Assembly (NCBI GenBank): GCA_018221045.1
Contig: JAAOXT010000024.1
Coordinates: forward strand, 1 to 62,443
Direction of reading: 5' to 3'
Length of the DNA stretch: 62,443 nucleotides
DNA from: Nanobdellota archaeon
GTDB taxonomy: Archaea; Nanobdellota; Nanobdellia; JAAOXT01
This document shows, piece by piece, positions 1 to 41,582 of this stretch. The notes below the pieces were generated by a model. That model was not told the origin of the DNA. It ran no database searches and saw only the letters and a list, made by a program, of their open reading frames with translations. Within the stretch, counting starts at the first letter, position 1. Each line of letters opens with the position of its first letter. The position numbers were made by a program, and so were the translations under genes.

Positions 1-584
1 AACTCTTTTTCTTTGTACGCGAAACGAATCGTTGATAAAACTCCCTTCTTTATCTGCAAGGAAGACCACTTATTCCTCAACAAGTCCTGAAACGAGTTAA
101 TACCTGTGTTGTGAAAACCTCCATACTTTTTAACCTGGTACTTCACGTGGTCCTCACTAATCTTTGAAGCCCCGACAAAACCCTTAACCCAATCAATGTT
201 CCTCCGAATCTTCTCACAATTATCTTTGCCGTAAACAATGAAATCCACATCTTTTTTTAAGGGAAAACCGATAAGCGCGGAACCCATAATCCCTACGTTA
301 TCCCCCCCAACAATTTTGGAAAGAGCGTTCCCCATTTTTTTCCAAACCCCTGACAAAAAATGTTTTTTCTTCCTAAAACAATTTTTTGGACAAAACCTGT
401 TAACAATTGAAGAAGGGTTTATTTCCTCAAGAATAAATCTCGTACTAACCTTGTCATAATGTTTTCCAGTCAACGGGTTAAACCTCGTACTTCCCGGCTT
501 AAAAACCAAGGTTCCCATCATTTTCCAGTAACCGTGAAGTATCCAAAAACTATGGTCATCAAGTTGAACGTAATCGCAGTCCAT
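1..584 (-). CDS. Nucleotidyltransferase-fold protein (COG1665-like), partial; runs off the left edge
   Basis: Not in the ORF track. Manual translation from ATG at 584 stays open to position 1: MDCDYVQLDDHSFWILHGY...VGIMGSALIGFPLKKDVDFIVYGKD... The GS-x-LIG...DxD motif is the Pol-beta-type NTase signature. Overlaps the 3' end of the kinase gene by 26 nt. Confidence 0.65.
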   Translation of the reverse strand, partial: MDCDYVQLDDHSFWILHGYWKMMGTLVFKPGSTRFNPLTGKHYDKVSTRFILEEINPSSIVNRFCPKNCFRKKKHFLSGVWKKMGNALSKIVGGDNVGIMGSALIGFPLKKDVDFIVYGKDNCEKIRRNIDWVKGFVGASKISEDHVKYQVKKYGGFHNTGINSFQDLLRNKWSSLQIKKGVLSTIRFAYKEKE

Positions 585-1149
585 TCAATTCCTCCACAAT
601 TTTTTTCACTGTTCGATTCGAGTTATTGTTCTTGATTATGACAAAACCATTTTTTTTGGCCTGCTTTGTCAAGTGTTGGTTGATGATTTGGATTACATCG
701 TAATGTTCTGTGAAAAGGTTGTGAGGGTTCGTTCTTTTCCTGTTTTTTAAGTGCAGGCGTGAACGATGGGTTTTTTCATCGTTCACCAGAAAGAACCCGA
801 TTTTTTCTCCAACGATTTTTTGAAAGACTCGAGGGGTGGCTTGAACTCCTTCAACGATCACCGTCTGCAATCTTTGTCGCGACAAGTTCGCCAATCCTGC
901 AATCCATGGTTCGAAGAAGTCCACGCAGTACTTAAATCCTTTCAACACGTTTTCTCTCGTTTTTTCCCCGAACAACCTCCACGCTTGGTGGGATGCCATG
1001 TACGCGTGCTCGTCGTGTTCTAAGTAACGGAAGACTTGTTTGAGAAAATCTGTTTGAATGATTTCTTCAACCGCTAGCTTGGCGGCGAGCTTGTGAGCAA
1101 CAGTCGTCTTCCCTGTTCCAGGTATTCCGTTGATGAACACTACAACCAT
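559..1149 (-). CDS. P-loop kinase, 2-phosphoglycerate kinase-like (COG2074 family)
   Basis: Walker A GIPGTGKTT, followed by IQTDFLKQV and VIVEGVQ, typical of 2-PG kinase / mevalonate-3-phosphate-5-kinase-like proteins. Confidence 0.7.
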   Translation of the reverse strand: MVVVFINGIPGTGKTTVAHKLAAKLAVEEIIQTDFLKQVFRYLEHDEHAYMASHQAWRLFGEKTRENVLKGFKYCVDFFEPWIAGLANLSRQRLQTVIVEGVQATPRVFQKIVGEKIGFFLVNDEKTHRSRLHLKNRKRTNPHNLFTEHYDVIQIINQHLTKQAKKNGFVIIKNNNSNRTVKKIVEELNGLRLRST

Positions 1150-2337
1150 TTAGTTTTGCGGGGAATAAGTGTTGAGCAACAAGCTTTTCAAGTCCCGTTG
1201 CTTAACGCACCTCCTAACAATTTTTTGCTTGAGTTTTTTTTGTCTTTCCAGTTTAACGCGTTCACAAACCTTTCCGTTCATTCGTGACGCGGGAGTCCCA
1301 GGTCTTTCTGAGTACTGGAAAATTTTTGCTTTATCGAATTTCACTTCATCAAATAATCGCATTGTTTTTTCAAAGTCTCGCCTCGTTTCTCCTGGAAAGC
1401 CGACTATCACGTGAGTGTTGAACTTTAGATTCGGATTTTTGTCACGAATAGAATTCAATTTTTTCACGATTATTTTAGGAGTATAATCCCTACCCATTTT
1501 TTTCAGTATTTTTTTGCTTCCGCTCTGGATGGGAACAGTGATTAAAACAATTTTTTTTGAGTTTAACAGTTCTTCCAGTTCATCAAATCTTTCGAGTGCT
1601 AAAGGATTGAACTCTGTGATAACTAAGTGAAATTCTTGGTCATGTGAAAGAAGAGAGTCTAACAGTTCAACAATGGTTTCGTCGTTGTCCCAACCATAGA
1701 CTCCGGTGTCGTCCGCGTTCAACGAGAAGACTTTGTAACCCTTGGAAAGTCCTTTTTTGAATTCTTCAATCACTTTCTTTACTGGCTTGCTCTTGAGTTC
1801 TCCTCGAGCGAATCGTTCAGAGCAGAAAGTGCATTTGCCCAAGCACCCGTCACTAATTTTTAAGTGAAAGACTTTTTCTTTATCATACAAGTAAGTGAAA
1901 TAAGCGTCCTTGAGAAAAAACCTGTTGAACCATTTAATGGTTTTGCACGTAAAGTTTTGTTTGCGCTTCACCACGTGACCGGGTTTTATGGAATACATTT
2001 TTAACCCAATCCTTTTTGCGAAGCGTTCAAGACTTGAGCCCGCGGCGTAGCCGCCAGAATGAACTTTTTTTAACTTATTTTTTGCTGTTACTGGCAGGCA
2101 TCCGAAAACTATTAGTTCTTGATCTTCTCGCAGGGACTGGTTTGTTTTTTTGATTCGTTTAAGCGTTTTCTGCTCAATTCTTTCAAGGAAGTTGCAAGAA
2201 TTCATGAAGACCCTGCTCGCTTCTCCGACTTTTTTTTCTTGCCAGCCATTCTTTTCTAAAAGTTGTCTGGCTTCTTCTCCGAAAAGTTTGAGCCGAATGC
2301 ACACGTTCTCGTTGACCATTGAGAAAGTTTTGCTCAT
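1150..2337 (-). CDS. MiaB-like radical SAM methylthiotransferase lacking the C-terminal TRAM domain
   Basis: UPF0004-type N-domain Cys residues (VCIR, NSC, FGC), CLGKCTFC radical SAM motif, IQSGS, IVGFPGET, YSERPGTPA; the protein ends shortly after the radical SAM core. Confidence 0.8.
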   Translation of the reverse strand: MSKTFSMVNENVCIRLKLFGEEARQLLEKNGWQEKKVGEASRVFMNSCNFLERIEQKTLKRIKKTNQSLREDQELIVFGCLPVTAKNKLKKVHSGGYAAGSSLERFAKRIGLKMYSIKPGHVVKRKQNFTCKTIKWFNRFFLKDAYFTYLYDKEKVFHLKISDGCLGKCTFCSERFARGELKSKPVKKVIEEFKKGLSKGYKVFSLNADDTGVYGWDNDETIVELLDSLLSHDQEFHLVITEFNPLALERFDELEELLNSKKIVLITVPIQSGSKKILKKMGRDYTPKIIVKKLNSIRDKNPNLKFNTHVIVGFPGETRRDFEKTMRLFDEVKFDKAKIFQYSERPGTPASRMNGKVCERVKLERQKKLKQKIVRRCVKQRDLKSLLLNTYSPQN

Positions 2338-2353
2338 AAAATAATAATACAGT

Positions 2354-2374
2354 TTTAGTTTTATTATAACTAAA
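2354..2374. promoter_or_regulatory. 21-bp inverted repeat (candidate operator) in a divergent promoter
   Basis: TTTAGTT-TTATTAT-AACTAAA, perfect 7-bp arms, 17 nt from the methylthiotransferase start. AT-rich, so chance occurrence is possible. Confidence 0.4.
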
Positions 2375-2441
2375 TGATAGAAAAACTATAACACCATACG
2401 ATAATGCTTTTAAATATTGAGAATCTTTGATTTTTTCGGGA

Positions 2442-3290
2442 ATGGTTTTATCTCAAGATGATGAGGACAAGATTCTGGTTTTTGTTAAAGGACAGCCCAG
2501 AACCATTCAGGACATAGCTATTTTTATTGGCAAAAGCTGGTTGACTGCTGACTCTTATGTTAAGAAAATTAAGGATAAAACGGGTTTGATTAACGTGAAG
2601 AAGTTTAGGGGAGGAACTCGGGGCGCGTTGAAAATTGTTTACTGGAATTATTCTGAATCCATTGAGAACGACGATATTCGTAAGAACTTGTTTGAAAACA
2701 TTAAGTTCGGTAAAGTCAAGACGGATTTTGACCCTTTTGATGTGTATCAGTACGCGCCTGACAATAAGAAAAAATCTTTTATCGAAGAGTATAAGGAGGT
2801 TTTGAAGAGTGAGAAGCAAGGCCTTATTCCTTTACTGCGGCAGGTGGAGAAAGAGTTGTACAGTTTTTCGGGGAACATTTCTTGGATTAACATGGTTGAG
2901 AAAGGTAAGGGTGTTGTTGATGAGTTGCGCGACTTGTTTGAGCGAGGGGTTCGAGTGAAGGTTTTGTGCAGGGTTGACGTAGCTTCTTTGAAGAACATTG
3001 ACCGTTTGAAGAAGTTGTGCGAGGAAGTGGGTGGGGGGAGCGTGGAGGTCAGGCATTGCCGCCAGCCTTTGCGAGGTTTCGTGTTTGATGATAGGATGGC
3101 TCGTTTCGTGGACAATAAGTTTGTGAAAGATTATAAGGAGGGCGAGTTGAGGAAGAACGTCCGAATTTTTTACGACATTTTTGATGAAGGGTGGGTGGAT
3201 TGGCTTCAGAAAGTGTTTTGGGAGTTGTACCGTCATTCCATTCCTGATAAGAAAAGATTGGAGCAATTATCCAAGGTTATGCTTTCTTGA
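2442..3290 (+). CDS. TrmB-like transcriptional regulator (N-terminal HTH plus PLD-like effector domain)
   Basis: N-terminal QPRTIQDIAIFIGKSWLTADSYV HTH; C-terminal VRVKVLCRVD...VEVRH...RGFVFDD resembles TrmB/PLD-like domains. Start moved to ATG 2442. Confidence 0.6.
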   Translation: MVLSQDDEDKILVFVKGQPRTIQDIAIFIGKSWLTADSYVKKIKDKTGLINVKKFRGGTRGALKIVYWNYSESIENDDIRKNLFENIKFGKVKTDFDPFDVYQYAPDNKKKSFIEEYKEVLKSEKQGLIPLLRQVEKELYSFSGNISWINMVEKGKGVVDELRDLFERGVRVKVLCRVDVASLKNIDRLKKLCEEVGGGSVEVRHCRQPLRGFVFDDRMARFVDNKFVKDYKEGELRKNVRIFYDIFDEGWVDWLQKVFWELYRHSIPDKKRLEQLSKVMLS

Positions 3291-4197
3291 GAAAGTCTTT
3301 CAGTTCTTTGATTAGCTTGATTTCAGTGGAGTCAATTCCTTTTAAGTTGGCGAGTTCGTGGCTTATCCATCCGCCTTTCAGGTTCACGAACAACGCTTTT
3401 GTTAGTTGGTTACATCCGACCGCGCGTATTTCTATGATTTCTTGGCCAACTCTTTCCAGGAATTCCTTTGTTTTTTGAAATCTTTGCTTCATTCTTTCGG
3501 ATTCGTTCCCTGTAACCAGCACGACTTGGGAATTAGGGTTGGGTGTTTCCCAAGCGCTTATCTCGTTGTGATTCATTTCCGGAAGCTCTTCTGCTTTAGC
3601 AGAGCTTTTCGCGTTCTCGTTGAGTTGTGACTTGAAACCCGTGGCAACGCTTGACAAGTATCCTGAAGAGTAGATAATCACGTTTTTTCCCAAAAGTTTT
3701 CGCGAAATCTCTTTTGCCCCGTCACGAGCTTTTTTTAGTGCTTCAAAATCAACTCTTTCCTCGTGCCCTAACATTTTTAGTAAAGGTATGAGCATTAGTG
3801 GCAGGGCCGCGCGGGGTTGCAAGCCTGGTTTGACCGCAATGTTTTCAGGGCTTTCCAGTGAAAGAGTTCCTCCAGAGCTTATGGTCACGACGTTGCATTT
3901 CTTGTCAAGTGCTTGTTTGAACGCGCTGACTGTTTCTTCAGTGTTTCCTGAGTAACTAACACATATTATTAACGTGTTTTGATCCGCGAAGGCTGGCAAG
4001 TCGTACGAGTTAACAAGTGCTATGGGTTTGTCATAAGAATTTTCTAATATTCTTTTAGCTGTTTTGCCTACAAGCCCGCTTCCACCCATCCCACATATTA
4101 CAACGTTTTTTGGTTTGAAATCAAGCTTTGGAACAGACGTGTTTTCTGCTTCTTCGCATAGCTTCAGGTATTGTTCTAGCGCTTCAAGAATGTTCAT
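3277..4197 (-). CDS. Bifunctional phosphoglucose/phosphomannose isomerase (SIS domain)
   Basis: GMGGSG, SYSGNTEET, GLQPRAA, QLNENAK and LPEMNHNEI motifs. Confidence 0.9.
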   Translation of the reverse strand: MNILEALEQYLKLCEEAENTSVPKLDFKPKNVVICGMGGSGLVGKTAKRILENSYDKPIALVNSYDLPAFADQNTLIICVSYSGNTEETVSAFKQALDKKCNVVTISSGGTLSLESPENIAVKPGLQPRAALPLMLIPLLKMLGHEERVDFEALKKARDGAKEISRKLLGKNVIIYSSGYLSSVATGFKSQLNENAKSSAKAEELPEMNHNEISAWETPNPNSQVVLVTGNESERMKQRFQKTKEFLERVGQEIIEIRAVGCNQLTKALFVNLKGGWISHELANLKGIDSTEIKLIKELKDFLKKA

Positions 4198-4264
4198 TCA
4201 GAAAACCGTGAGGAGGGTTTGGGTTATAAAGTTTTATTAAATCCTGAGTACATTAATCGGGTGC

Positions 4265-5041
4265 ATGGGTGTTAAGATTCATTATGAGGTTAAAGGAAGG
4301 GGGCAGCCCGTTCTTTTCATTCACGGGTACGGCGGGTCCACTATAACGTGGAAGAGACAGGTCCCATTTTTTTCTAAGAATTACAAGGTGATAAGCATTG
4401 ATTTGCGAGGTCATGGCAAATCCGATAAACCTAGAAATTATGTTTACACGTTGGATAAAATAGTTGAAGACGTTCACAAACTTATTAAGAAGCTTGATGT
4501 TAAGCCCGTCGTGGTCGGAGTATCTCTTGGAGGGATTATCAGCTTGATGTTGGCCGCCAAGCATCCGCGTTCAGTTAAAGCAATTGTGGTTGTGAGTAGT
4601 GTTATGAAGTCCACGCAGAGAATCATGAATGATTTTATGAAGAGGGCTTTGACCGATTTTGAAGTAAACATGTTGAAGAAATTATTAGGTAAGAAGATTA
4701 AGATAAATCCTAATAAGACTTTGACTGACATTTCTTGGCGTGACCGCAAATTGTTGAGCAAAATTGTTTTTAATACTGCTATAGAGGCAAAGATTCAGCT
4801 GGTTCTTGAAGTGTTAAACACAGATTTGACTAAAAGTGTTAAAAAGATTAGTGTCCCTGCTTTAATTGTTTATGGAGAAGATGACTGGGTTCCTAAAAGT
4901 CAGGCAGAACTCATGCACAAACTCATTAAAGACTCTCGACTCGTGGTTTTGAAGAATGCTGGTCACATGCTTCCTTTCCAATCTTTTAAGCGTTTTAACA
5001 AGTTGCTGGACGGTTTTTTAACTCTTAATTACAGCACCTGA
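4265..5041 (+). CDS. Alpha/beta hydrolase
   Basis: HGYGGS, DLRGHG, nucleophile elbow GVSLGG, GEDD acid, AGHML histidine. Confidence 0.9.
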   Translation: MGVKIHYEVKGRGQPVLFIHGYGGSTITWKRQVPFFSKNYKVISIDLRGHGKSDKPRNYVYTLDKIVEDVHKLIKKLDVKPVVVGVSLGGIISLMLAAKHPRSVKAIVVVSSVMKSTQRIMNDFMKRALTDFEVNMLKKLLGKKIKINPNKTLTDISWRDRKLLSKIVFNTAIEAKIQLVLEVLNTDLTKSVKKISVPALIVYGEDDWVPKSQAELMHKLIKDSRLVVLKNAGHMLPFQSFKRFNKLLDGFLTLNYST

Positions 5042-11424: not shown

Positions 11425-12549
11425 TCACCTCACAATTGTCGGCAAAACCTTTTCACCGCAACGCTCACACCTAAAAATTTGTAATTCATAATCCCAAACA
11501 TTGTTTGGTCCTAGCACGAAATTATCGGGATCCGGCATGTCAACATCTACGCTGACTCGCCCACCCAAATCGTCTAAGGAAAACTTTTTCTTCGGGGTTG
11601 TCGCGAACTCGTAATGAACAGCGTTCAAAACCCCAATAGGGGACAACTCTCCTCTGCAACCCGTGTCTAAATGAATGCTCGGGTAAGAAACTCTATCTCT
11701 AGGCGTTACGCCGAGCAAAGGAATTTGCTTCGCAACTGGGTACGAATCATCCAAGCCAGACGCTGAGTGAAGAACAGTGAAACTTCTTCCACGAGGCTTA
11801 CCGTTCCGAAGTTCTTTTCGCTCGCTTGAACGCATCAACCCATGCTTAATCAACGCTTCCTGCCTGAACACAATCATTTGCTCCAAAACAGAAGCGTTAA
11901 CTAAACCAGTTCTAGCATTGAAAGAATCCAGCAAGTTACGACCCACACTTCTCCTAGGCTTTAATTCCCATTCACCAATGAAAGAATTGTTTTCAACATT
12001 CATGGAGAACAAGTCAAGCAAAAACTTTTTCTTAACCTTGCCTACACCCCGGCTTTTGGAGAAAGCGTAAACGTCTGGAAGAATGTGCTCTCTTTTCTCC
12101 ATCCTATCATCAGTCATTTGTTCTGAAGTAATTAAATCATCCAAAGGGTAATCAACTTTTTTCTTAGTTGCTAAACCTAATCTTGCCAAGAAGTCCAGGC
12201 AAAAACCTGTCGTGGAAACAGACTTGTTCAAAAGCAGTGCTTGAGCGTTCGTGGTGACCGCCAAACCCTTACCTTTCACGGGAGGCAGGGCTAGGTATTG
12301 CTCAATGAGTTCAGCGCCAGTAGGGATGCGGGAAAAACTGGACAAACCTTTAGAACGCTGGTAAAAATTTTCCCACGAATCCTGACTCATCAGTAAAGGA
12401 GTCTCGCTCATGCCCGCCTCAACAAACTTATGGATGCCAGGGTAAGAATGAATCAAAGACCTATCCCCTTCATACAACGCTTGGAGAGATAAAGGGCTGA
12501 GCTTGCTTAAGAGTTTAGAATCCCACCTCAATAAATTCTCCCAGTTCAT
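11425..12549 (-). CDS. Hypothetical protein with a C-terminal CxxC (Zn-ribbon-like)
   Basis: 374-aa ORF between the nuclease and protease genes; ends RCERCGEK; no other recognisable motif. Confidence 0.6.
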   Translation of the reverse strand: MNWENLLRWDSKLLSKLSPLSLQALYEGDRSLIHSYPGIHKFVEAGMSETPLLMSQDSWENFYQRSKGLSSFSRIPTGAELIEQYLALPPVKGKGLAVTTNAQALLLNKSVSTTGFCLDFLARLGLATKKKVDYPLDDLITSEQMTDDRMEKREHILPDVYAFSKSRGVGKVKKKFLLDLFSMNVENNSFIGEWELKPRRSVGRNLLDSFNARTGLVNASVLEQMIVFRQEALIKHGLMRSSERKELRNGKPRGRSFTVLHSASGLDDSYPVAKQIPLLGVTPRDRVSYPSIHLDTGCRGELSPIGVLNAVHYEFATTPKKKFSLDDLGGRVSVDVDMPDPDNFVLGPNNVWDYELQIFRCERCGEKVLPTIVR

Positions 12550-13367
12550 TTCAACCTCCGAGCAATCTCGTCAACCGGAACCTTAAAAACATGGTCTTCA
12601 AAACAAAAATCGTCACCTTTTTTAATAGTCGTGAGGGTGAACTCGTGCTCGTAAACACTTTTGCCAGCTTTTTTCAGCCCGGCAACGTAATCATACATTC
12701 TCTTTTTAACCTCTGGCAAAAAATCGTTTCCAGGCAGGCGAGTCTTGAAATCAACGACTCTTAAACCCCACGGCCAAGGCTCGAGCTTATCAATAACCCC
12801 TCCTTTAACAGGAACCTCCCAAAAACTTGGCTCGGGGAAAATGGTCGTGTAATCCTTAGGAATACCATAATCTTCACATTCTTCAGCAAAATCGTCAATT
12901 CTTCTTTTATTGTAATTGACCTTAGCTTCAATGAACTGGTCAACATCAAAACCAGTCAATAACTCATCTGGGAAAATCTTGCCCCCAGTCAAAGCCTCAA
13001 AACCTCCTTCCTTTTCGAGTAAGGGTTTGATTCCAAGGAGTTTGCCATGCACGAACTCGTCTTCACTAACCAAGGGGAGGAAACCAACGTTCTCGGCGTG
13101 AGCAAAAGAAGAGCTCAACCTAACAGAATTTTCTTTATCGCGCCAGCAAAGCTGAGGAAAACCAATAAAAGAAATTTTCAAATCCTGTTTAAACTCTTCA
13201 GGACTACACGTCCTATTATCGTAAGCAATAACGTTCTCCAACCTACCCACGCCCTGTAGTAAAGCGTGGTAAAAACGTCCCCTTAATCGTTCCATAACAA
13301 AAATAGACGAAAAACAGTTTTTTAAGACTTTCCTTTTAACACATATTAGTTCCCAAAAATTCATCAT
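12546..13367 (-). CDS. PD-(D/E)xK nuclease-like protein (RecB/Cas4-like, no Fe-S Cys cluster)
   Basis: GVIDKL...VVDFKT...RMYDY fits motifs II/III/IV; upstream QLCWRD...FAHAE. Confidence 0.65.
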   Translation of the reverse strand: MMNFWELICVKRKVLKNCFSSIFVMERLRGRFYHALLQGVGRLENVIAYDNRTCSPEEFKQDLKISFIGFPQLCWRDKENSVRLSSSFAHAENVGFLPLVSEDEFVHGKLLGIKPLLEKEGGFEALTGGKIFPDELLTGFDVDQFIEAKVNYNKRRIDDFAEECEDYGIPKDYTTIFPEPSFWEVPVKGGVIDKLEPWPWGLRVVDFKTRLPGNDFLPEVKKRMYDYVAGLKKAGKSVYEHEFTLTTIKKGDDFCFEDHVFKVPVDEIARRLK

Positions 13368-18898: not shown

Positions 18899-19209
18899 GA
18901 ATCCAAGGAATAAAACCACCAAAAGACAAGTGTACTGACAAGAAGTGCCCTTTTCACGGGAACCTCAAGGTCAGGGGAAGAACCTTCCAAGGCACTGTAG
19001 CGTCGACAAAAATGAATAAAAGCGCAGTAATAACTTGGAGCAGAGTGGTTAAGATCCCCAAATACGAAAGATACATGAGAAAAAAGACAAGGGTGACCGC
19101 CCACGTCTCTCCATGCATGCAAATAAAAGAAGGAGATAAGGTTCTGATAGGTGAAACCAGACCCATATCCAAAACCAAAAAATTCGTGGTCCTGCAAAAA
19201 CAAGAATAA
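18883..19209 (+). CDS. rps17: 30S ribosomal protein S17 (uS17)
   Basis: CTDKKCPFHGNL, ETRPISKTKKFVV. Confidence 0.97.
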   Translation: MARDIGIQGIKPPKDKCTDKKCPFHGNLKVRGRTFQGTVASTKMNKSAVITWSRVVKIPKYERYMRKKTRVTAHVSPCMQIKEGDKVLIGETRPISKTKKFVVLQKQE

Positions 19210-19217
19210 AAAAAAAT

Positions 19218-19625
19218 ATGAAACCCGTTAACGCAAAAATAACCAAACCACTTCCCATCGGCGCAAGATTAATCGTAGCTGACAACAGCGGCGCCAAAAT
19301 AGTAGAGATAATAGGCGTGAAAAAAGGTGGCGGGCAAGTCAAAGGCAGACTCGCGTCAGCAGGCGTCGGAGACATTATAATCGTGGCAGTAAAAAAAGGC
19401 AGGCCAGAATTCAAAAAAAAAAGGTTACCAATGGTAATAATCAGACAAAAAAAAGAGTTCAGAAGACCTGACGGGACCAGAGTCAAATTCGAAGACAACG
19501 CGTGCGTAATGATGAAAGACCTTAAACACGGAGAACCGCAAGGAAGCGTGGTTAAAGGAGCCATGGCAAAAGAAGCGGCCAAGAGATTCCCAAAAGTAGG
19601 AAAAATAGCGAGGATAGTACTATGA
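19218..19625 (+). CDS. rpl14: 50S ribosomal protein L14 (uL14)
   Basis: ADNSGAK, RRPDGTRVKFEDNA. Confidence 0.97.
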   Translation: MKPVNAKITKPLPIGARLIVADNSGAKIVEIIGVKKGGGQVKGRLASAGVGDIIIVAVKKGRPEFKKKRLPMVIIRQKKEFRRPDGTRVKFEDNACVMMKDLKHGEPQGSVVKGAMAKEAAKRFPKVGKIARIVL

Positions 19626-20003: not shown

Positions 20004-20702
20004 ATGGCACATTTGAAAGCGCTGGTAGCGCCAAAACAATGGAAAATACTTAGAAAAAAAAACAAATGGGTGGCCAGGCCGAAACCAGGCCCTCACAATA
20101 AACAAGCAATCCCTCTAACACTAGTACTAAAAAACTTGCTTGGAGTAGCCGAAAACAAAAGAGAATCAAGATACATACTTCAAAAAAAAGACGTGCTGGT
20201 TGACGGAAAAATCGTCAAAGACGCTAACCGAGCCATAGGCTTAATGGACGTCATAACCTTACAAAAACAAAAAAAGGATTACAGGATGACCCTGGATAAT
20301 AAAGGCAGACACCTGCTAATAGAAATAAGCAAAACAGAAGCAGACCAAAAAATTTGCAGGGCAACCAGAAAAGTCAAAATCAAAAAAGGACAAACCCAAA
20401 TAACTTTCCACGACGGCAAAGTAATGATAACCAAAGAAAAAATTGATGTCGGGGACTCCGCCCTGATCCAACTATCAAAAAACAAGATGACTAAGGTGCT
20501 GAAGAACACCAAAGGCGCTGCAGTACTCGTAATCGGTGGAAACCACGTTGGAGAACAAGCAACCATAGAAAACTATCAATCATTCAAAGGAGTTCAACCC
20601 GACAAAATAGAGCTCAAAACCATTAAAGGCAAGACGTACGCAACCCTGGAAAACTACGTGCTAGTACTTGGCGAAAAGAAATCCGCGATTAAAATACAAT
20701 GA
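20004..20702 (+). CDS. rps4e: 30S ribosomal protein S4e (eS4)
   Basis: MAHLKALVAPKQW...PKPGPH, IGLMDVI; start ATG 20004. Confidence 0.95.
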   Translation: MAHLKALVAPKQWKILRKKNKWVARPKPGPHNKQAIPLTLVLKNLLGVAENKRESRYILQKKDVLVDGKIVKDANRAIGLMDVITLQKQKKDYRMTLDNKGRHLLIEISKTEADQKICRATRKVKIKKGQTQITFHDGKVMITKEKIDVGDSALIQLSKNKMTKVLKNTKGAAVLVIGGNHVGEQATIENYQSFKGVQPDKIELKTIKGKTYATLENYVLVLGEKKSAIKIQ

Positions 20703-21202
20703 ACAAGATGAACACAGTAAAACTTGACAAGATAACCCTAAACATAGGGGTAGGGGAAGCTGGAGAAAAGCTGGAAAAACGGATGAAAATACTAGAAGAA
20801 CTCAGCGGAACCAAAGTAATAAAAACAAAAGCGAAAAAAAGAATTCCCACGTGGAACGTCAGACCAGGCATGGAAATAGGGGCAAAAGTCACGCTAAGAG
20901 GAAAAAACGCGGAAAAAACGCTTAAAATACTGCTAAAAGCAGTTGACAACACGCTAAAACCAAAAAACTTTGATAAACAAGGAAACTTCAGCTTCGGGAT
21001 AAAAGAATACATTGACGTCAAAGAAATTCAATACAACCCGAAACTAGGAATATTCGGTTTCGATGTCGCGGTAACCCTAAAAAAACCGGGCTACAGGGTG
21101 GCGCAAAGAAAAATCAAGAAATCCAAAATCGGAAAAAAACAACTCGTCACCAAAGAAGAAGCCCAAGAATTCATAAAAAAGATGGGGGTGACAGTTGAAT
21201 GA
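20699..21202 (+). CDS. rpl5: 50S ribosomal protein L5 (uL5)
   Basis: [32 protein letters not shown]. Confidence 0.97.
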
Positions 21203-28287: not shown

Positions 28288-28623
28288 ATGAGCATAGACG
28301 ACATAATCATAAGCAAAAAACTTGTTCTAGAAATTCAAGACAGATTTATACTTGATTATAACTTCGACCGCGACGAGGAAGGCAATATATCGAGCAGTGA
28401 GACCAATAGAATAAGAAGCATAACTGAAGACTTGATAAGCATGTTGGAAAACGCTTACCGAAAATATGCAGAAGAGATTGAACAATTCTCGCCAGGTTAT
28501 GAAGAAGCGGACAGGAAGAAAACTTTTTTCACATACCTCCTGAACTTATCAGCGATTTGGGATGGAAAAAAACTTGACGAAGTGGTTTACAACCACGCAA
28601 TATTTGAAATCAACTCTATGTAA
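28288..28623 (+). CDS. Hypothetical helical protein
   Basis: 111-aa ORF, no motif recognised. Confidence 0.55.
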   Translation: MSIDDIIISKKLVLEIQDRFILDYNFDRDEEGNISSSETNRIRSITEDLISMLENAYRKYAEEIEQFSPGYEEADRKKTFFTYLLNLSAIWDGKKLDEVVYNHAIFEINSM

Positions 28624-28628
28624 AAATT

Positions 28629-28949
28629 TTATTCTTTCAAACGTTTTAGAACGTTCTGCTTAAACTTCTCAAACTCCTCATCAATAATTCTGGAAACCTT
28701 ATCCCCGCCCTCTTGAGAAGACTTCTTAGCTGCCCGGGCCTCGGCGAGCTCGTGAATGCTTGGAGGACTGCCAAAACTATTTCTCTCAGCAGGAACCGCT
28801 AACTCCCTGCCCGGCCTAATCGCCGGCCTAGGACTCCCAAAAGGTTTTTCAGTCTCGGGCTTTAATGTAGACTTGTTAACGTTATTGATTGCTTCGTTTA
28901 CAAGCATTTGAAAGGGACTATCTTTTTTCGGACCGTTTTGGGGATTCAT
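28629..28949 (-). CDS. Hypothetical protein (Pro-rich, probably disordered)
   Basis: 106-aa ORF. Confidence 0.5.
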   Translation of the reverse strand: MNPQNGPKKDSPFQMLVNEAINNVNKSTLKPETEKPFGSPRPAIRPGRELAVPAERNSFGSPPSIHELAEARAAKKSSQEGGDKVSRIIDEEFEKFKQNVLKRLKE

Positions 28950-28995
28950 TATGACCGTAAGTAATTGCTCAATGTTATAAAAACTTTATCGTAAT

Positions 28996-29397
28996 CTAAG
29001 GAATCCTTCCCTTAAAACAACCCCCCGCCTTACACTCCCCACCTCTAAGGTCATAAGAAAAACCCAGTTTTTCCTCAATGACTGACGGATGAATCAAACA
29101 ATTTGCTAACTCTTCTTCAAAAGTTAGGAAAACGCAGTGCTTACCAAAATCATGAATGTCTGAATCAGGCATTAACTCAAGCAATTTTGACTTAACAGGC
29201 CTTGCTGGTTCAGGAACAATACCCCAATAATCATAACTTTCAATGTTTTCGAGCGCGAAATCAACCTCTTCCCTGACCTGCGGAAAAATGCTTAAAACAT
29301 ACTCTTTCAACTCAGGACGTTCTTTGAAGCCTTTAAGCAAAGTTCTTGACCAGAAATGATTATCCTTGCAACAAACCCCACACCTCTCACAAACCAT
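28996..29397 (-). CDS. YkgJ-like cysteine-cluster (CxxCxxCC) protein
   Basis: MVCERCGVCC...HCVFL...CLIH...ECKAGGC; start moved to ATG 29397. Confidence 0.7.
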   Translation of the reverse strand: MVCERCGVCCKDNHFWSRTLLKGFKERPELKEYVLSIFPQVREEVDFALENIESYDYWGIVPEPARPVKSKLLELMPDSDIHDFGKHCVFLTFEEELANCLIHPSVIEEKLGFSYDLRGGECKAGGCFKGRIP

Positions 29398-39205: not shown

Positions 39206-39274
39206 AGATAATACAATAAAGTATGTTTTGGTTTTCAATAATGTTTTTTAATAGTTATTTCATCGGGTTTAGGG

Positions 39275-39901
39275 ATGACGTTACGAGATCTTTACGAGCA
39301 AAACCCGTGGATTCCTGAATTTGAACGAGCACGACGAGAGAAACTTATTCAGCTTTCAAAAGAGAGAACGATTTATTCTATAGACGAGCTTGACGGAACT
39401 TGGAAAAACTTGGTTCGAACCGCGAGAGTGGCTCAAAGTAGGGCTTACCCTCCTTTTTCAGACTATTTCGTGGGGGCAGCCGTTCTCGGCAGCGACGAAG
39501 AACTTTACTGGGGTTGCAATAGGGAACACGCTCTTTTTACGCTCACCGTCCACGCTGAAGGCGCAGCGATAAGCCATATGGTTTCTGGCAAAGACGTTGA
39601 AAGCCTGGTCGAAAAAATGATTCAGGAAAACGAGATGGAGTTCACGAATCTTGAGCCAAGAGACTTGCCAAAAGTCAGAAGGCTCGCAGTGGTCGTTCCT
39701 AAAAAAAAAGATCCTTCAATACCAGTTCTTCCCTGCGGTCTATGTAGAGCGGATATCAGCGAGTTAATGGAGAGTCCTGACATCAGGATTCTGAGCACTT
39801 TCCCAAAAGGGGACTTAGCAATGATGGTCAGCCTGGACGAACTTTACCCGCACAGGTTTGACTCCACGTTCTTAGAAACTTTTAGCAAGGAAGAAAACTA
39901 A
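39275..39901 (+). CDS. Cytidine deaminase-family protein
   Basis: AYPPFSDYFVGAA, HAEGAAI and PCGLCR zinc motifs intact. Confidence 0.85.
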   Translation: MTLRDLYEQNPWIPEFERARREKLIQLSKERTIYSIDELDGTWKNLVRTARVAQSRAYPPFSDYFVGAAVLGSDEELYWGCNREHALFTLTVHAEGAAISHMVSGKDVESLVEKMIQENEMEFTNLEPRDLPKVRRLAVVVPKKKDPSIPVLPCGLCRADISELMESPDIRILSTFPKGDLAMMVSLDELYPHRFDSTFLETFSKEEN

Positions 39902-39938
39902 AATTATATATGCGTGCTAAAACATTTCTATCATCCTA

Positions 39939-41582
39939 ATGAAGGAGTTAAAGGATTTTATCAAAAAAGTGTTGGGAGAGGAAGTTTGGCTGGAGACTCC
40001 GCCAAACCCTTCAATGGGGGATTACTCTACTATCATAGCTTTTCACATATCAAAGAAAAAGGGGAGAACCCCCAAGGAAACGGCGGAGAGGTTGGTCAAG
40101 AAATTGAATAAGAAGAAGCCGAGAATGATTAAAGAAATCAAAAGGTTTGGGCCTTACATCAATTTCTTCATTGACAGGGACGCGCTTGTCAGAAAAACGG
40201 TTCGCCAAGCATTGAAAAAAGGTTATGGCTCCATGAATATAGGAAAAGGAAAGAAAGCTTTGGTCGAGCACGCGAGCATCAACCCTAACGCTTCCCCTCA
40301 CGTTGGCAGGTCCAGAAACGCGATGATTGGGGACGTCATTGTTCGCGTCCTAAAATTCTTGAATTATAAAGTGAATGCTCATTACCTTGTTAACGACGCG
40401 GGAAAACAAATAGCGATGCTAGTCCTCGGAGCAAGGAATAGAAAAAAAATTGATTTTGACTCGTTGCTGGACATTTACGTTGAAATAAACAAGAAATTAG
40501 AGTTGGACCCAGAGATTGAAAAAAAGGTTTTCGAGCTCTTGAACAAATTTGAAAAAGGGCACGGGCCAACCGTTAAAGAATTCAATAGAGTCGTGGGGAC
40601 TTGTATTAGAGGCCAGAAAAAAATTTTCAACGACTTTGGAATAGGATATGATTATTATGATTACGAGAGCCAGTACTTGTGGAACAGGAAGGTTGATGTG
40701 GTTCTTAAAAAACTGGAAAAAACGGGAAGGGTTTTCGTGGACGAGAATGGTCGAAAAGTTTTGGACCTTAAAGGCTTTGACTTGCCTATGAGAACCCCTG
40801 TTTTCGTGCTCACCAGGGAGGACGGCACTTCGCTTTATGGGCTTCGCGATTTAGCTTATAACCTAGACAAAGCGAAAACCAAGAAAAACGTGGTGGTCTT
40901 GGGTGAGGACCATAAGTTGTATTTTCAGCAAATAAAGGCGAGTCTTGGATTAATCGGTGTTGAAGCACCTGAAATAGTTCATTACTCTTTCATCTTACTT
41001 AAAGAAGGTAAAATGTCCACGCGACGAGGTAAAGTCGTGTTGTTGGAGGATTTCATGAAAGAAGCTGTGACCAGGATTAAAAAAATAATGGTTGGCAGAA
41101 AGATTTCAAAAAAAGACTTTGACAAGATTGCCAAGCAAGTTGCTTACGCTGCTATAAAGTATTCTTTGCTCAAGGTTAGTCCTGACAAAAACGTTGTGTT
41201 TGACTGGGAGCAGGCCTTGAACATGGAGGGTGACAGCGGCCCTTACCTTCAGTACTCAGTGGTTCGCGCGAAGAAGATACTGTCTAAATCCAGAAAAAAA
41301 CGTTCTCTCAACTTTAAGGCTGTTGATGACAATTCCTTTAATCTCTGTAAGAAAATGTCGGAATTCCCTGGCGTTGTGAAGAAATTCAGCGAAAATTATA
41401 AGCCCAACCTCATCGCTAATTACGTGCTGGAACTCGCAAAGTTGTTCAACGAGTTCTACGCTCAAACAAGAGTCATCGGCTCCGAGCAGGAGGGTCAAAG
41501 ACTAGCATTGGTAAAGGCTGTGTCGAATGTTCTCGCGACAGGCATGGGCTTGCTGGGTTTAGAAGTGCCTAAGGAAATGTGA
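39939..41582 (+). CDS. argS: Arginine--tRNA ligase
   Basis: SINPNASPHVGRSRN (HIGH), GKMSTRRG (KMSKS), GDSGPYLQY. Confidence 0.97.
   Translation: MKELKDFIKKVLGEEVWLETPPNPSMGDYSTIIAFHISKKKGRTPKETAERLVKKLNKKKPRMIKEIKRFGPYINFFIDRDALVRKTVRQALKKGYGSMNIGKGKKALVEHASINPNASPHVGRSRNAMIGDVIVRVLKFLNYKVNAHYLVNDAGKQIAMLVLGARNRKKIDFDSLLDIYVEINKKLELDPEIEKKVFELLNKFEKGHGPTVKEFNRVVGTCIRGQKKIFNDFGIGYDYYDYESQYLWNRKVDVVLKKLEKTGRVFVDENGRKVLDLKGFDLPMRTPVFVLTREDGTSLYGLRDLAYNLDKAKTKKNVVVLGEDHKLYFQQIKASLGLIGVEAPEIVHYSFILLKEGKMSTRRGKVVLLEDFMKEAVTRIKKIMVGRKISKKDFDKIAKQVAYAAIKYSLLKVSPDKNVVFDWEQALNMEGDSGPYLQYSVVRAKKILSKSRKKRSLNFKAVDDNSFNLCKKMSEFPGVVKKFSENYKPNLIANYVLELAKLFNEFYAQTRVIGSEQEGQRLALVKAVSNVLATGMGLLGLEVPKEM

Follow-up and report, generated by a model that had tools for sequence, protein, structure and literature searches.

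A TRAM-less methylthiotransferase, a small kinase and a nucleotidyltransferase-like OB-fold protein form a rare gene module in archaea and bacteria

What does a methylthiotransferase (MTTase) do when it is encoded together with a kinase and a putative nucleotidyltransferase (NTase)? This question is raised by the left end of contig JAAOXT010000024.1 (here C4) from a Nanobdellota archaeon (GCA_018221045.1), of which the stretch from position 1 to 62,443 was analysed (the window). At this end the program-made list of open reading frames (ORFs) contains three minus-strand genes packed together, which code for a MiaB-family radical-SAM (S-adenosylmethionine) MTTase, a small P-loop kinase and a nucleotidyltransferase-like protein (NT). 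Only two substrates are known for MTTases, namely A37 of tRNA and Asp88 of ribosomal protein S12. An earlier note, made from the sequence alone, had regarded the three tightly coupled genes as a dedicated biosynthetic or modification cassette, for a modified nucleotide, cofactor or peptide, rather than as part of routine tRNA modification. The ORF coordinates bear out the tight coupling, as the start codon of the kinase gene immediately follows the stop codon of the MTTase gene, and the kinase and NT ORFs overlap by 26 nt (559-584). The NTase motif that the note had read in the third gene, GS...DVD, is present as well (GIMGSALIGFPLKKDVDFIVYG), and with the help of a second contig, C11, this gene could be completed to 279 aa.

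To see how far this arrangement is conserved, NT loci were gathered from one-genome-per-species contigs (26 loci), metagenomes (31 loci) and further assemblies, and all their ORFs were clustered. For the linkage count, 26 non-redundant loci were used in which NT is flanked by 2.5 kb or more on either side, and the kinase was sought within 3.5 kb. A kinase gene lies within this distance in 26/26 loci. The third partner is an MTTase in 15 loci and a class I SAM methyltransferase (Methyltransf_25/11) in the other 11; no locus carries both and none carries neither. In the 15 MTTase loci, which come from DPANN archaea, bacteria of the candidate phyla radiation (CPR) and Firmicutes, the three genes are adjacent, and the earlier note's proviso that the triplet might not be conserved in any other genome can be dismissed. 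The order of the genes differs between lineages: MTTase-kinase-NT in Woesearchaeota-type loci, kinase-MTTase-NT in Firmicutes, kinase-NT-MTTase in a Saccharibacterium and split strands in another. Such shuffling would be expected of functional linkage rather than of inherited synteny.

The hosts of the module are archaea labelled Woese-, Pace- and Nanoarchaeia, Saccharibacteria, Buchananbacteria, metagenome-assembled genomes of gut Bacilli and Clostridia, and one Paenibacillus. DPANN archaea, CPR bacteria and small-genome gut Firmicutes are all poorly understood organisms. Within the class of the window's organism, NT orthologues occur in 4/401 genomes (~1%), and among 1.84 billion cluster representatives the NT family comprises 72 clusters at E<=1e-30, or 176 if the limit is relaxed to E<=1e-10. 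No NT match was obtained in phage, plasmid and IMG/VR collections, and full-text literature searches returned no description of this gene combination. We can thus confirm that the triplet is a real, rare gene module of archaea and bacteria with an undescribed function.

The alternation between MTTase and methyltransferase is not confined to one split in the history of the module. When the two labels are mapped onto an NT tree (quick search, Shimodaira-Hasegawa-like approximate likelihood ratio test (SH-aLRT) support only, label of L085 doubtful), about six changes are needed, at least four of which are forced by well-supported branches. Therefore, MTTase and methyltransferase have taken each other's place repeatedly, as interchangeable decorators on a constant scaffold of kinase and NT. 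Nearly all NCBIfam matches of the methyltransferase are of small-molecule types (DVU_1556, BioC, UbiE/MenG and similar); the sole RNA methyltransferase among them is CmoM, with a weak match (E 0.014).

In line with the hidden Markov model (HMM) check that the earlier note had proposed, both UPF0004 (PF00919, E 7e-9) and Radical_SAM (PF04055, E 1.4e-20) were found in the MTTase. Against TIGR00089, the NCBIfam profile of the MiaB/RimO family, the protein scores 240.7 bits, under the cut-off of 251. Since this alignment stops at profile position 359/429, with about 22 residues remaining, the C-terminal TRAM domain is absent, and a Pfam search for it matched neither PF01938 nor PF18693. All close homologues likewise lack TRAM. 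The three cysteines of the auxiliary cluster (C13, C48, C80) are invariant in 21/21 cassette MTTases and align with those of 15/15 canonical MTTases, and the radical-SAM CxxxCxxC motif (C165, C169, C172) is also invariant in 21/21. At positions that are conserved in canonical MTTases, the cassette enzymes show clade-specific residues: D209 for Q, T267 for H and H309 for D.

An alternative to be considered at this point is that the MTTase might be nothing but an archaeal e-MtaB of the ordinary kind, placed by chance beside two unrelated genes. The best subfamily HMM is indeed that of e-MtaB (TIGR01578), and the cassette MTTase is the sole MiaB-family enzyme in the window's own genome (89.7% complete), as it is in a Saccharibacterium. 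However, the score of 198.9 bits is far under the cut-off of 314.7, and the other subfamily profiles are missed as clearly (MtaB TIGR01579, 190.7 against 357; MiaB TIGR01574, 166 against 355; RimO TIGR01125, 174.7 against 357 bits). For a phylogenetic placement we computed a tree of 68 sequences (quick search, SH-aLRT support only), with NCBIfam-labelled MiaB, MtaB, e-MtaB and RimO references from cassette-bearing genomes, together with miaB and rimO of E. coli. Sixteen locus-verified cassette MTTases and nine close database matches form one clade (SH-aLRT 99), which is nested in a larger TRAM-less superclade (SH-aLRT 100). This superclade is sister to e-MtaB (SH-aLRT 98) and does not fall inside it, in contrast to the grouping that would have spoken for an ordinary enzyme. 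Moreover, canonical MTTases are kept in cassette genomes: both MiaB and MtaB occur in two Bacilli and MiaB in a Buchananbacterium, and a Woesearchaeote has a true e-MtaB (380.8 bits) alongside the cassette enzyme. Therefore, the cassette MTTase is an extra paralogue and not a degenerate housekeeping MTTase. Together with the linkage conserved across two domains of life, these results essentially exclude the chance neighbour, and they support the earlier view of a dedicated cassette rather than routine tRNA modification.

The nearest TRAM-less MTTases outside the cassette adjoin TylF, CmcI, class I methyltransferase and GT2 genes. Two locus look-ups suggest that the TRAM-less superclade as a whole has left tRNA behind. 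This context brings up the possibility that the cassette decorates a surface glycan or a teichoic-acid-like polymer. The kinase would then provide a phospho-alcohol, NT would be an NTase-fold phosphotransferase of the LicD/fukutin type whose OB domain binds oligosaccharide, and the MTTase or methyltransferase would tailor a sugar. GFO_IDH_MocA sugar-type dehydrogenases, which are found in seven Firmicutes loci, and GalE, which adjoins one CPR cassette, would suit such a role. However, across the 62 cassette loci there is no recurrent glycosyltransferase, flippase or membrane protein, all three cassette proteins look soluble, the accessory genes are of families that act on nucleotides and not on sugars, and the OB fold of NT matches nucleic-acid-binding OB folds. 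We consider glycan decoration quite improbable.

Three further observations concern the MTTases. Locus L055:2342-7680 shows a further uncharacterised MTTase context: TRAM-less paralogues occur three in a row, with a B12-binding radical-SAM gene behind them and CapK-like and FemAB-like genes next door. Net charge and pI were uninformative as indicators of RNA binding: the median net charge of cassette MTTases is +19, the sister TRAM-less enzymes of glycan clusters are also very basic, and canonical tRNA MTTases range from -21 to +54. At the Buchananbacterium locus, a short RlmN/Cfr-like radical-SAM ORF (L013:5265-6086, 273 aa as called) lies directly upstream of the cassette MTTase. Adenine C2 is the target of RlmN, too, but this ORF could be coincidental housekeeping.

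NT does not match any Pfam or NCBIfam profile at cut-off. Its sub-threshold Pfam matches are to MTPAP-like (E 0.024), to NTP_transf_2 (E 0.011, for a paralogue) and, for the homologue P0194, in the range E 9e-4 to 5e-3. An AlphaFold2 model of the single chain, based on a 20-sequence alignment (predicted local distance difference test (pLDDT) 93), places a beta domain at the N-terminus, an OB fold at the C-terminus and a divergent palm of pol-beta type between them. In the palm, G98, G101-S102, D112 and D114 are invariant, the pattern G101-S102...D112-x-D114 in 25 sequences. The signature hG[GS] x9-13 DxD is placed on strand E97-100, a helix and strand E114-118 of the model, as expected for pol-beta NTases; the third strand, however, lacks an invariant acidic residue that could be the third catalytic carboxylate, and has the motif KWSS instead. 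For fold searches the first 203 residues were modelled separately (pLDDT 93.5). The N-terminal beta domain gave weak Sm/LSm-like matches (E>0.2), and the middle part gave weak matches to Megavirus NTase, cGAS, CutA and ANT(2'') (E>0.2), with Foldseek NTase matches at E>0.5. Since these matches are weak, no specific NTase subfamily can be named. The C-terminal ~75 residues, the OB fold (PF01336-like type), have no sequence-level Pfam match, yet Foldseek aligned them in the PDB with the N-terminal anticodon-binding domains of LysRS (E 7.5e-4, prob 1.0), and in a viral structure library with the OB domains of ExoVII, SSB and DnaE. Judging from the model, NT is most aptly regarded as a highly divergent protein of the NTase fold that carries an OB domain of nucleic-acid type; its family is unannotated and its domain layout new.

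Some relatives of NT deserve mention in their own right. A Bacilli locus (L017:7989-9735) has a tandem NT duplication, the copies being sisters on the NT tree. Five genomes of the class contain distant NT paralogues of 355-364 aa that start with MHFYES... and occur in tandem pairs. The pairs (L087-L090, e.g. L089:4263-6426) are flanked by two Phosphodiest genes (PF01663; type I phosphodiesterase/nucleotide pyrophosphatase), and a ribbon-helix-helix protein, a CxxC-containing protein of ~200 aa and a PHP RNase-RNM/pAp-phosphatase-like gene are further neighbours. These loci look like a second undescribed NTase-OB module. In P0194 (640 aa, on a single 3.2-kb Logan contig), the one case of its kind, an NT homologue is joined to a polyprenyl synthetase domain (PF00348, E 1.2e-19). 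This fusion and the likeness of the kinase to mevalonate-3-phosphate 5-kinase (see below) hint at isoprenoids, a link that we treat as a lead only, as a polyprenyl synthase is present in 0/62 cassette loci.

The kinase matches AAA_18/AAA_33 in Pfam. Over its full length, NCBIfam likens it most to 2-phosphoglycerate kinase and mevalonate-3-phosphate 5-kinase, with scores that stay well under both cut-offs (NF003259, E 1e-24, 87.4 of 343 bits; NF008996, E 1.6e-23, 83.4 of 250 bits). For COG2074, one of the families that the earlier note had listed for HMM searches, the kinase is a candidate by its resemblance to 2-phosphoglycerate kinase, with scores well short of the cut-offs. Invariant in 34 homologues are G8 and K14 (Walker A), D34, E100-G101 and K135. 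When the PDB was searched with a kinase profile, most matches covered the bare P-loop; the longest stretches aligned with nicotinamide riboside kinase, and the tRNA-dependent kinase PSTK was among the longer matches.

Additional hints come from genes that accompany the cassette, although each occurs in a minority of loci and the statistics are small. In four archaeal loci CYTH stands as its own gene immediately upstream of the kinase; in the Bacilli locus L024 it forms a fusion with an HTH_3 domain, and in L010 it is joined to the N-terminus of the MTTase (hmmsearch E 8.6e-10). An AAA_28 NadR-like kinase is encoded in six loci, an HD_4 (SpoT-type) hydrolase in two, an NrtR regulator (Nudix plus NrtR winged helix-turn-helix) in two Clostridia loci, His_Phos_1, alone or with NUDIX, in L002/L011 and L007, and a PHP protein in L020. 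Eight bacterial loci of the methyltransferase type have a thymidylate-kinase-like protein with a small NTase-like tail. By their sequence families, the recurring accessory genes would all act on nucleotides or phosphoesters.

In 19 archaeal loci a winged-helix-looking gene, REG, is kept upstream of the cassette. It was rejected as a dedicated regulator, since REG occurs in 95/401 genomes of the class, mostly without the cassette, against 4/401 for NT. REG is thus a neighbour and a possible regulator; neither Pfam, NCBIfam nor the PDB, the last searched with a REG profile, yielded a sequence match. In another genome with the same REG/AAA_28/CYTH neighbourhood, the cassette is replaced by two small radical-SAM genes that are weakly MoaA/viperin-like. 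The MoaA and viperin families both act on nucleoside triphosphates. In other cassette-free genomes REG faces HIT-domain proteins or a dihydroorotate-dehydrogenase-like gene (REG loci L091-L098). Since REG faces such varied nucleotide-related genes, the cassette occupies a variable slot in a nucleotide-metabolism neighbourhood, and REG may mark a variable nucleotide-metabolism hotspot in DPANN archaea.

Taking these findings together, we tentatively favour, at somewhat less than even confidence, an accessory module, spread horizontally, that would tailor a polyphosphate-bearing molecule derived from a nucleotide and would not serve housekeeping tRNA modification. Several lines of evidence lead to this reading: the obligate linkage of kinase and NT, the swap of MTTase for methyltransferase, the nucleotide-type accessory genes, the occurrence of sister TRAM-less MTTases in sugar/glycan tailoring clusters or tandem arrays and not in RNA contexts, the retention of canonical MiaB, MtaB or e-MtaB, the rarity of the module, and the MoaA/viperin-like pair that takes its place elsewhere. 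A small molecule is indicated because kinase and methyltransferase resemble small-molecule enzymes, metabolism because the sugar-type dehydrogenase and NrtR control fit it, and a triphosphate ligand because the CYTH-MTTase fusion points there. We infer that the substrate is a nucleotide-derived, phosphate-rich molecule that is phosphorylated, methylthiolated or methylated, and used by NT in nucleotidyl transfer. In this scheme, the kinase would phosphorylate a hydroxyl group of a nucleoside- or nucleotide-like precursor, and the two-cluster MTTase would place a methylthio group on an unactivated carbon of the free substrate, by analogy with MiaB/MtaB the purine C2; in the sister variant the class I SAM methyltransferase would add a methyl group instead. 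NT would transfer a nucleotidyl group while its OB domain holds a nucleotide-type acceptor or a nucleic-acid end. In some loci, CYTH, SpoT-type HD, Nudix, His-phosphatase and PHP enzymes might trim or recycle the phosphorylated product, and regulators of the NrtR or CYTH type might sense it. The product could be a signal, an antimetabolite or a cofactor-like compound; nothing in the analysis points to the peptide that the earlier note had also listed. The loss of TRAM, the obligate kinase and NT-OB partners, the swap for a methyltransferase and the coexistence with canonical enzymes argue for a third class of MTTase substrate, and the module thus points to an unknown sulfur-containing metabolite or RNA mark. 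If the substrate is a free nucleotide, this would be the first MTTase to act on one, and a tRNA-independent route to 2-methylthio-adenine compounds.

A number of points weigh against a small-molecule substrate. NT has two domains of nucleic-acid-binding type, namely an OB fold of the aminoacyl-tRNA synthetase anticodon class and the weakly Sm-like N-terminal domain, and could therefore be an in-trans replacement for the lost TRAM, which would favour RNA. Among MTTases, no activity on a free small molecule is known, tRNA and S12 being the only recognised substrates (PMC10702137). NT is assigned to pol-beta solely on the motif and sub-threshold matches, and no accessory gene is found in more than a minority of loci.

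The main rival is accordingly an RNA-directed modification or repair complex, which we regard as possible but doubtful. Here, the OB and Sm-like domains of NT would replace TRAM in binding a tRNA anticodon loop or an RNA end and would present an adenosine, the MTTase and methyltransferase variants would parallel ms2t6A and m6t6A as alternative decorations, and kinase and NTase would either prepare or heal RNA, as Pnkp/Hen1 does, or equip it with a cap-like 5' end. The absence of TRAM from the MTTase, together with the constant presence of a neighbouring gene for an anticodon-type OB fold, is most naturally read in this way, and A37 of tRNA is the only known nucleic-acid chemistry of MTTases (PMC10702137). 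The sister position to e-MtaB, the tRNA-dependent PSTK among the longer matches of the kinase, the presence of CYTH, Nudix, HIT and PHP (RNase AM-like) enzymes capable of acting on RNA 5' ends, and the NTase-plus-OB layout, which recalls ligases and capping enzymes, are consistent with an RNA substrate, and the analogy with m6t6A versus ms2t6A would explain the methyl/methylthio alternation. On the other hand, presence in ~1% of class genomes and transfer between domains of life are unusual for a translation-related modification, and canonical MTTases coexist with the cassette. Kinase and methyltransferase resemble small-molecule enzymes, the GFO_IDH_MocA oxidoreductase of the seven Firmicutes loci has no obvious RNA role, sister TRAM-less MTTases reside in glycan clusters, and no recurrent tRNA gene or Rfam element was found beside the cassette. 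Furthermore, the lysine nucleotidylation motif KxDG of ligases and capping enzymes is absent from the conserved columns of NT, where K45, K111 and K172 stand in other contexts.

In a more radical version, the module would give prokaryotic RNA a cap-like or terminally nucleotidylated end. The 5' end would first be prepared by a CYTH/TTM triphosphatase or by the kinase; the NTase-plus-OB protein would next attach a nucleotide, which would finally be methylated in the methyltransferase variant or 2-methylthiolated in the MTTase variant. Such a module, an analogue of the eukaryotic capping apparatus without homology to it, would provide the first methylthiolated RNA end, but we rate it as highly unlikely.

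The patchy, cross-domain distribution also calls to mind an anti-virus system that makes a nucleotide analogue. In analogy to viperin with its linked nucleoside monophosphate kinase, a documented precedent (bioRxiv 10.1101/2023.09.13.557418), the radical-SAM enzyme would generate a methylthio analogue, the kinase would bring this to the triphosphate level, and NT would block replication by attaching it to the ends of nucleic acids. The MTTase and kinase have PADLOC matches to the candidate pair PDC-M51A/B, and MoaA/viperin-like radical-SAM genes lie in the same archaeal neighbourhood of another genome. However, these PADLOC matches are weak (E 8.6e-4 and 1.7e-5) and do not extend to NT, the neighbours of the cassette are housekeeping genes (PGI, EF-2, EF-1alpha, S10, primase, RF2) and not defence islands, searches of the phage, plasmid and IMG/VR collections brought up no copy, and NrtR-type regulators suggest metabolism. 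An antiviral role is therefore unlikely.

The features of the locus are compiled in the table. The window is the start of C4 in an assembly of 830 kb and 31 contigs, and the assembly break falls within the NT gene. As C11:24069-24151 is identical to window positions 1-83, the two contig ends share an 83-nt overlap, and the full-length NT was obtained by joining C11 (23813-24151) with C4. Beyond the break, C11 carries the genes for EF-2, EF-1alpha and ribosomal protein S10. A 98%-identical relative (NCBI label Candidatus Parvarchaeota archaeon) has all three genes intact on a 75-kb contig. In the intergenic region between the MTTase gene and REG, only imperfect palindromes were found and no operator could be established. 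Elsewhere in the genome, contig C28 (44 kb) has six separate radical-SAM ORFs of 440-550 aa, which is unusually dense for a genome of this size; they match weakly, and only the radical-SAM core of the MTTase profile.

Table. Coordinates of the cassette, its flank and further radical-SAM ORFs of the same genome (window positions unless a contig is named)
Feature	Position	Strand	Remarks
MTTase, TRAM-less MiaB-family radical-SAM methylthiotransferase	1150..2337	-	395 aa; UPF0004 + Radical_SAM
Small P-loop kinase, 2-phosphoglycerate-kinase / mevalonate-3-phosphate-5-kinase-like	559..1149	-	196 aa; AAA_18/AAA_33
NT-like protein, N-terminal 194 residues	1..584 (ORF 3-584, open at contig end)	-	remaining 85 residues on C11
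AT-rich divergent intergenic region, MTTase versus regulator-like gene	2338..2441	.	
REG, winged-helix-looking, divergently transcribed	2442..3290	+	282 aa from ATG; TTG at 2427 gives 287 aa
C28 radical-SAM ORFs, e.g.	3743-4288, 12082-12624, 18981-19550, 20285-20893, 28578-29054, 39272-40102		

How does the module compare with known systems? The COG2074-like family of 2-phosphoglycerate kinase and mevalonate-3-phosphate 5-kinase supplies the best named full-length matches of the cassette kinase, but at 83-87 bits against cut-offs of 250-343, and the context of the cassette is unrelated to the cyclic diphosphoglycerate or mevalonate pathways. With viperin and its linked nucleotide (CMP/UMP) kinase the module has in common a radical-SAM enzyme linked to a small P-loop kinase and a patchy occurrence across domains of life. 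In the cassette, however, the radical-SAM enzyme belongs to the MiaB family, a third, obligate NT-OB protein is present, a defence-island context is missing, and none of the PADLOC models matches NT.

From the perspective of its component list, the methyltransferase variant equals bacterial Pnkp/Hen1 RNA repair and the eukaryotic and viral mRNA capping apparatus (TTM triphosphatase, NTase-plus-OB guanylyltransferase, class I methyltransferase), as it combines a P-loop kinase, an NTase-type domain with OB, a class I SAM methyltransferase and, in some loci, CYTH/TTM. Yet NT carries a GS...DxD signature of pol-beta type, in contrast to the covalent-lysine KxDG fold by which ligases and capping enzymes work, and the cassette kinase resembles small-molecule and not polynucleotide kinases. 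The likeness to these systems is architectural only.

The closest relationship is that to MiaB, MtaB, e-MtaB (CDKAL1-type) and RimO. The cassette MTTase shares with them UPF0004 with three cluster cysteines, the radical-SAM CxxxCxxC core and the core motifs GC, QSGS, R283 and GFPGET. It differs from them in that it lacks TRAM, scores under every curated cut-off, forms a separate clade with D209, T267 and H309, and is always accompanied by the kinase and the NT-OB protein while it coexists with the canonical enzymes.

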